This document shows, one piece after another, positions 55,657-56,311 of a stretch of 64,000 nucleotides of DNA. Source of the stretch: Escherichia coli (GTDB taxonomy: Bacteria; Pseudomonadota; Gammaproteobacteria; Enterobacterales; Enterobacteriaceae); NCBI RefSeq assembly GCF_044324785.1, contig NZ_CP172127.1; one strand, given 5' to 3'. The notes below the pieces were generated by a model. The model saw nothing but the letters and a program-made list of their open reading frames with translations, did not search any database and was not told where the DNA came from. The translations under genes and the position numbers were made by a program. Position 1 is the stretch's first letter, and each line of letters opens with the position of its first letter.

Positions 55657-55923
55657 ATGGACATTAACAACAAAGCCCGCATTCATTGGGCATGCCGCCG
55701 TGGTATGCGCGAACTCGATATTTCAATCATGCCGTTTTTCGAACATGAGTACGACAGCTTAAGCGATGACGAAAAACGCATCTTTATTCGTCTGCTGGAA
55801 TGTGACGATCCCGATCTGTTTAACTGGCTGATGAACCACGGTAAACCGGCCGATGCAGAACTGGAAATGATGGTCCGACTCATCCAGACACGGAACCGGG
55901 AACGTGGTCCTGTGGCAATCTGA
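55657..55923 (+). CDS. sdhE: FAD assembly factor SdhE (YgfY; antitoxin-like CptB)
   Basis: 88-aa [35 protein letters not shown]... Confidence 0.93.
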
Positions 55924-56311
55924 TTTGCGCGTCTCCTGGCGCGCACAGTGGCTTTCCTTGCTGATTCATGGGCTGGTTGCCGCTGTTATTTTACTCATGC
56001 CCTGGCCGCTCAGTTACACCCCGTTATGGATGGTGTTACTTTCGCTGGTGGTGTTTGATTGCGTTCGCAGCCAGCGGCGTATTAATGCTCGCCAGGGGGA
56101 AATTCGTCTGTTGATGGACGGGCGTTTGCGTTGGCAAGGGCAGGAGTGGAGCATCGTCAAAGCGCCGTGGATGATTAAGAGCGGCATGATGCTGCGTTTA
56201 CGTTCTGATGGCGGTAAACGGCAACATTTATGGCTGGCAGCCGACAGCATGGACGAAGCCGAATGGCGGGATTTACGGCGGATTTTGTTGCAACAAGAGA
56301 CGCAAAGATAA
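55904..56311 (+). CDS. cptA: inner-membrane protein CptA (YgfX)
   Basis: 135-aa [39 protein letters not shown]...; overlaps sdhE by 20 nt. Confidence 0.9.

Follow-up and report, generated by a model that had tools for sequence, protein, structure and literature searches.

SDH and FRD depend on members of the SdhE/Sdh5 family for their covalent flavinylation and for their activity. In type IV toxin-antitoxin (TA) systems, toxin and antitoxin act on a common target without binding each other, and TA loci are typically accessory, patchy in their distribution and often multi-copy or mobile. The gene pair sdhE-ygfX (also ygfY-ygfX or cptB-cptA) has been discussed in both of these contexts. SdhE is conserved from proteobacteria to mitochondria, a far wider distribution than that of YgfX (PMC5042078), and in E. 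coli, mutation of ygfY abolishes SDH activity and leaves hardly any growth on succinate (PMC5293155). As for YgfX, the protein is natively present in E. coli membranes (PMC11997395). In Serratia, where sdhE and ygfX are co-transcribed, it is a membrane protein with SdhE as an interaction partner (PMC5042078); a two-hybrid assay of the Shewanella proteins did not show YgfY interacting with YgfX (PMC8621075). Here we compare with these systems the sdhE-ygfX pair carried by a 64,000-nt stretch of Escherichia coli DNA, referred to below as the window.

Gene content and conservation of the locus

In the window, sdhE (ygfY, cptB) occupies positions 55657..55923 of the plus strand, begins with ATG and encodes 88 aa, and ygfX (cptA) lies on the same strand at 55904..56311, begins with GTG and encodes a small inner-membrane protein of 135 aa. 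Both the ORF list and the raw sequence reproduce exactly the coordinates and lengths that a preliminary description had given for an 88-aa SdhE and a 135-aa CptA, and they bear out the 20-nt overlap proposed there, since positions 55904-55923 are common to the two genes, with ygfX in frame +1 relative to sdhE. Neither gene is broken by a frameshift or an internal stop. When searched against protein families, SdhE of the window matched Pfam Sdh5 (PF03937; E-value 5e-26, 90.8 bits, cut-off 27) and, over residues 1-88, the NCBIfam SdhE equivalog NF008130 (1e-59, 198.4 bits against 120), and YgfX matched Pfam Cpta_toxin (PF07254, formerly DUF1434; 6.6e-50, 169.1 bits against 27.3), with residues 2-131 of its 135 corresponding to profile positions 1-132 of 133. 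Because of these Pfam and NCBIfam matches, sdhE and ygfX are not chance ORFs; the same matches agree with the alignment to K-12 in identifying the products as SdhE and CptA, the names they had first been given.

In K-12 MG1655, b2897 (sdhE) spans 3040804-3041070 (267 nt) and b2896 (ygfX) spans 3040416-3040823 (408 nt), with the same gene lengths and the same 20-nt overlap as in the window. A three-way alignment of 936 nt revealed 14 positions at which window and K-12 differ (about 1.5%), and since every difference within sdhE and ygfX is synonymous, both encoded proteins are identical to those of K-12. Across the larger interval 55400-56500, MG1655 is ~98.5% identical to the window, and the closest complete genomes, at 99.0-99.3%, are those of environmental and animal E. 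coli isolates.

In a megablast search with this interval (55400-56500), 5425 of 5426 complete E. coli genomes contained the locus, a frequency that makes it part of the core genome; the median copy number was one per genome, and all places but one were chromosomal. The surrounding gene order, ygfZ / sdhE-ygfX / fldB-xerD-dsbC-recJ, is fixed in K-12, the window and the genera compared. In the window, ygfZ (54434..55414, minus strand) is divergent from sdhE, fldB (56351..56872, minus strand) is convergent with ygfX, and xerD (56984..57880, plus strand) follows.

Beyond E. coli, a genome scan with one genome per species, seeded with the closer of our alignments (A3), returned 246 relatives, and the best 80 of these 246 loci, ranging from Escherichia to Buttiauxella and Cedecea, were analysed; because the closer alignment served as the seed, these 80 are all from Enterobacteriaceae. 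The GTG start of ygfX and an overlap with sdhE of exactly 20 nt were present in 81/81 Enterobacteriaceae loci, and ygfX lay directly 3' of sdhE in every one of these and in six more distant loci. One of the scanned assemblies, CACSKA010000005.1, is titled 'Chryseobacterium sp. 18061' and carries a typical Enterobacteriaceae sdhE-ygfX pair whose YgfX shares 76% amino-acid identity with that of E. coli; this assembly is probably mislabelled or contaminated.

Even where YgfX has only 27-39% identity to the E. coli protein, its gene is still found directly 3' of the Sdh5 gene and opposite ygfZ. Among these distant loci, overlaps of 20 nt (P0156, P0216 and P0199), 14 nt (P0229) and 26 nt (P0247) were seen, together with a 30-nt gap in P0251, and the overlap measured 14-26 nt in 4 of the 5 distant loci in which both gene ends could be read. 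In Shewanella, ygfY and ygfX are 37 bp apart (PMC8621075). Other genes replace the downstream fldB in two distant loci. In the window (54434-56311) and in the set L083-L089, the divergent pairing with ygfZ is kept even where the distant fldB-xerD has been replaced. The product of ygfZ is a folate-dependent Fe-S maintenance factor, and the retained ygfZ / sdhE-ygfX pairing suggests a conserved link between genes for Fe-S and flavin maturation. The YgfX family as a whole is small, with 133 clusters at 50% identity among 1.84 billion representatives, and the matches listed for a profile search with a more divergent alignment (A2) were close relatives only.

The locus is an ordinary chromosomal housekeeping operon of E. 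coli, sdhE-ygfX, which is already known and is neither special nor a mobile element. The preliminary description had itself spoken of known biology, and rightly so: the locus is annotated in K-12 and is in the literature, and it therefore carries little weight as a discovery.

Gene overlap, expression signals and probable translational coupling

In one frame, the overlap (55904..55923, plus strand) encodes SdhE residues 83-88 and the sdhE stop codon, and in the other, +1, it encodes YgfX residues 1-7; it begins at 55904, the second base of the SdhE Arg82 codon. It forms part of a nearly invariant 37-nt block (55888..55924, plus strand; -16 to +20 around the ygfX GTG) that comprises, besides an SD-like GGAA/GGGAA and the start codon GTG, the overlap read in both frames and the stop codon of sdhE. 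In an alignment of 82 sequences, identity within this block reached ~0.9-1.0 per column, including the wobble positions of both frames, and the codons that flank it varied at their third positions. Going upstream from 55904, the ygfX frame meets no start-like codon before it is closed by a TGA at 55868, so that the GTG at 55904 is the only canonical start between this stop and the conserved Trp4 codon (55913). The N-terminal motif that follows, M-V-x-W-Q-x-x-L-R-x-S, is kept to about 28% identity (alignment A2), and it is also kept by a homologue (L089; MWQIQLRIS) whose gene is separated from sdhE by a 30-nt gap, does not overlap it, and is preceded by an SdhE tail unrelated to that of E. coli. 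Because the motif is conserved even in this non-overlapping homologue, it is primarily the YgfX frame that constrains the overlap.

The sole pairing of the ygfX leader with the anti-SD (GGGA) comes too close to the GTG, ending 1-2 nt away from it, and pairing is predicted for about 60% of the bases around the start. Since the GTG start is weak, lacks a well-placed SD and sits in a conserved overlap, the sequence points to coupling of ygfX to sdhE translation as the most likely arrangement, which makes the coupling suggested in the preliminary description reasonable. Upstream, sdhE has a Shine-Dalgarno AGGA (55648..55651, plus strand) 5 nt 5' of its ATG, with an anti-SD duplex of -4.3 kcal/mol at normal spacing, and the CAGGAA found upstream of sdhE is conserved across genera in the intergenic alignment. 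In the mechanism we propose, sdhE and ygfX would be transcribed together, and ribosomes finishing sdhE would give rise to YgfX synthesis either through reinitiation or because local structure is unwound, a coupling that would tie YgfX output to SdhE output. The overlap itself would be frozen because its bases serve twice, for the N-terminal strand of YgfX, which is conserved, and for the C-terminal tail of SdhE, which is non-essential.

The overlap could also be mere genome compaction, with ygfX translated independently from its own weak RBS and with dual coding as the source of the conservation. The invariance from 0 to +20 is indeed expected because of dual coding, which by itself predicts it; distant homologues, Shewanella included, tolerate overlaps of 14 or 26 nt and gaps of 30-37 nt; and a hairpin predicted around the ygfX start (55889-55914) is not significant (z -1.7). 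However, the sdhE wobble positions -14 and -11, which lie upstream of the overlap, are invariant as well, suggesting on the strength of the alignment an extra constraint at the RNA level, such as ribosome binding or local structure, and ygfX has GTG as its start in all 81 loci, with no well-spaced SD. For these reasons we regard compaction alone as rather unlikely and favour coupled translation.

The flanks of the pair hold several candidate expression signals. A putative -10 hexamer for sdhE-ygfX, TACAAT (55616..55621, plus strand), lies inside the block AAAAACACGTTACAAT, which is conserved in the ygfZ-sdhE intergenic alignment of 22 Enterobacteriaceae genera, and from this cross-genus conservation we infer a promoter-like element; no good -35 accompanies it. 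A consensus promoter scan of 55300-56500 returned no sigma-70 site, and the three terminator-like matches in the scan of this interval lay inside ygfX at chance level. Promoter-like elements for ygfZ were seen on the minus strand at 55454-55481, where TTGCAA (55476-55481) and TACCAT (complement of 55454-55459) are separated by a 16-bp spacer, and both are conserved across the 22 genera of the ygfZ-sdhE intergenic alignment.

Downstream, the 39-nt gap between the convergent stops of ygfX (56311) and fldB (56351) contains a hairpin with the stem TGACGGC/GCCGTCA (56315..56344), with an MFE of -22.5 kcal/mol and z = -3.9; 0 of 200 shuffles folded as well. It is followed by a T-rich tail on the minus (fldB) strand only, and it is probably the fldB terminator, which may also stop sdhE-ygfX transcripts and thus act bidirectionally. 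An Rfam search of 54000-58000 found nothing in sdhE-ygfX, and its sole matches, all sub-threshold, were near the 3' end of ygfZ. These were to naRNA4 (25 bits against a gathering threshold of 59.5) and to a miRNA model on the minus strand at 54374-54450, spanning the ygfZ stop (54434-54436) and the bases immediately downstream. As naRNA4 is a REP-derived sRNA, this segment is probably a REP-type repeat.

YgfX as a probable partner of SdhE and the toxin-antitoxin label

The window SdhE has the same sequence as the solved E. coli YgfY/SdhE chains 1x6i, 6c12_D and 6b58_B (E 8e-59 to 2e-51), a sequence match through which it can be assigned to the small helical bundles that bind SdhA/FrdA. In the translation, the RGxxE motif reads R15-G16-M17-R18-E19; this motif has been described as important (PMC8621075).

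For YgfX, an AlphaFold2 model built with 43 diverse homologues (pLDDT 90.2, pTM 0.69) contains both helices of the two-helix membrane protein that had been expected. In this model, a transmembrane hairpin of hydrophobic sequence (helices 12-31 and 36-62; 55937..56089, plus strand) is followed by a cytoplasmic domain (residues 65-134; 56096..56305, plus strand) with six strands, located between residues 65 and 112, and a C-terminal helix at 118-134. Among the conserved YgfX residues are W77, W82, W110, D114, W121 and R122. A further beta-strand is predicted at the N-terminus, at residues 2-8 (V-L-W-Q-S-D-L; 55907..55927, plus strand; block pLDDT 88), and is mostly encoded inside sdhE. Because the six C-terminal strands and the one N-terminal strand add up to seven, and because both termini are cytoplasmic, we infer that the N-terminal strand completes the domain, giving in the model a seven-stranded beta-sandwich capped by a C-terminal helix. 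The cytoplasmic domain is thus predicted to be PH-like in fold, which is not to say that it belongs to a known PH family: a relaxed scan of 43 YgfX family members gave no match to the bPH Pfam families at E <= 10, and two of the 43 matched DUF2244 weakly (E 0.009). A Foldseek search of the PDB with the model returned nothing significant (best E 0.057), and a PDB sequence search with YgfX found no solved relative.

We propose that YgfX is probably a membrane-bound partner or adaptor of SdhE, and that its toxicity on overexpression is probably a side effect rather than a toxin-antitoxin function. An AlphaFold2 prediction of the paired construct SdhE-(GGGGS)6-YgfX, made from a shallow alignment with monomeric YgfX and without a membrane, reached a pTM of 0.48, with the two halves folded as they are alone; it yielded no confident complex and speaks neither for nor against the published interaction. 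We know of no ygfX phenotype that ties YgfX to SDH or FRD assembly. Taken as a whole, the explanation by a housekeeping operon with coupled translation, in which YgfX acts as the membrane partner or adaptor of SdhE and toxicity is a by-product, seems to us likely to be correct.

A more specific form of this idea is offered tentatively, since it is more doubtful: YgfX would be a membrane-anchored 'split PH' adaptor, not a toxin, with its first strand encoded inside sdhE; the 37-nt block would serve as a coupling element and so set the SdhE:YgfX ratio; and YgfX would hold or release SdhE at the membrane, at the site of SDH and FRD assembly. Were this true, the always-adjacent, divergent ygfZ would hint at a conserved cofactor-maturation cluster for complex II. 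The predicted PH-like domain provides a concrete starting point for testing how YgfX relates to SdhE and to complex II assembly.

The preliminary account had also mentioned that the pair has been described as toxin-antitoxin-like, and correctly so; the description itself is contested, with no TA phenotype found in Serratia or Shewanella. In a genuine type IV TA system, YgfX would block the polymerisation of FtsZ and MreB and SdhE would counteract it on the same targets. The Pfam family name Cpta_toxin reflects this idea, the antitoxin-first gene order and the overlap resemble those of TA operons, CptA toxicity and its rescue by CptB upon overexpression were reported for E. coli (Masuda 2012, as cited in other papers), and an Acinetobacter homologue expressed in E. 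coli likewise showed toxicity with rescue (PMC8132199). Against this, the locus is core, single-copy and strictly syntenic, being found in 5425/5426 E. coli genomes and in all of the sampled Enterobacteriaceae species, so that the accessory, patchy or mobile distribution of TA loci is not what is found for sdhE-ygfX. Moreover, SdhE has an independent housekeeping function and is more widely distributed than YgfX. In Serratia, where SdhE and YgfX interact, no TA phenotype was seen (as cited in PMC3985639), and the reported interaction contradicts the type IV feature of no binding between the partners (PMC5042078; PMC3985639). The Shewanella YgfX is not specifically toxic, is not neutralised by YgfY and binds neither FtsZ nor MreB, and deletion of ygfX does not rescue the ygfY mutant (PMC8621075). 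The current name in NCBI and K-12 annotation is 'protein YgfX'.

Taken together, these data make a genuine type IV system improbable. The TA label is weak, and the published toxicity results conflict. Because the locus is core, single-copy and syntenic, the YgfX family is small, and the Serratia and Shewanella results are negative, the pattern is more that of an accessory membrane partner to a housekeeping factor than that of an addiction or stress module. The label 'CptA toxin / CptB antitoxin', which Pfam and TA surveys continue to spread, is a poor match for a housekeeping operon that is core and syntenic.

Gene boundaries and comparison with described systems

Two readings of the boundary between the genes fare worse still. 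In the first, the true start of ygfX is the in-frame TTG at 55925, directly after the sdhE stop codon, and there is no overlap at all. This codon, the eighth of ygfX and TTG in the window, is however CTG in other E. coli and CTG, TTA, CTC, CTT or ATA across genera, an ordinary synonymous variation of leucine codons which means that a start at TTG is not conserved. The codon has poor SD pairing (-2.2 kcal/mol), and Trp4, which lies upstream of it, is conserved in the family, including the non-overlapping homologue. As the codon varies and conserved residues lie 5' of it, we rejected this start, which is very improbable. The second, the least credible of all, invokes programmed +1 frameshifting in the overlap to yield an SdhE-YgfX fusion protein, as might be read from fusion ORFs of 166-217 aa with both Pfam domains in metagenome and Logan data, and we rejected it because the fusion junctions are all different, some with deletions and each a singleton or nearly so, varying as random indels or assembly errors would, and because inspection of the overlap showed no visible slippery motif. 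The fusion ORFs in question are P0002, P0003, P0005, P0008, P0009, P0010, P0013 and P0022, and their junctions fit single-base indels or assembly errors.

Annotators should keep the 20-nt overlap and the GTG start, both of which are real and deeply conserved. What this analysis adds to the existing picture is the depth of that conservation, a predicted PH-like domain in YgfX, and genomic evidence for a housekeeping over a TA role.

Set against described systems, the locus is closest to its K-12 counterpart, with which it shares the genes, their lengths, start codons, 20-nt overlap and neighbours, as well as proteins that are 100% identical, and from which it differs by synonymous and intergenic substitutions only. 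As a member of the SdhE/Sdh5/SDHAF2 FAD assembly factors (PF03937), SdhE combines a full-length match with the RGxxE motif and identity to solved chains, and shows no difference from the family in its own right; its C-terminal tail (residues 83-88) lies outside the PF03937 domain and is overprinted by the start of ygfX. The sdhEygfX operon of Serratia sp. ATCC 39006 offers the parallel of co-transcription and of an interaction between membrane YgfX and SdhE (PMC5042078), and that operon has been tied to prodigiosin production and to FlhDC/RsmA control. In comparison with bacterial PH-like domains, the predicted domain of YgfX apparently has its first strand at the N-terminus, before the membrane hairpin, as judged by the order of secondary-structure elements only. 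Finally, CbtA-CbeA (YeeV-YeeU) resembles the pair in that effects on FtsZ and MreB have been reported upon overproduction of the proposed toxin, as for CptA. CbtA-CbeA, however, resides in prophage-like islands and varies between strains, whereas the sdhE-ygfX pair belongs to the syntenic core, with a conserved metabolic assembly factor in the place of the 'antitoxin' and, in that of the 'toxin', a membrane protein with a different fold.
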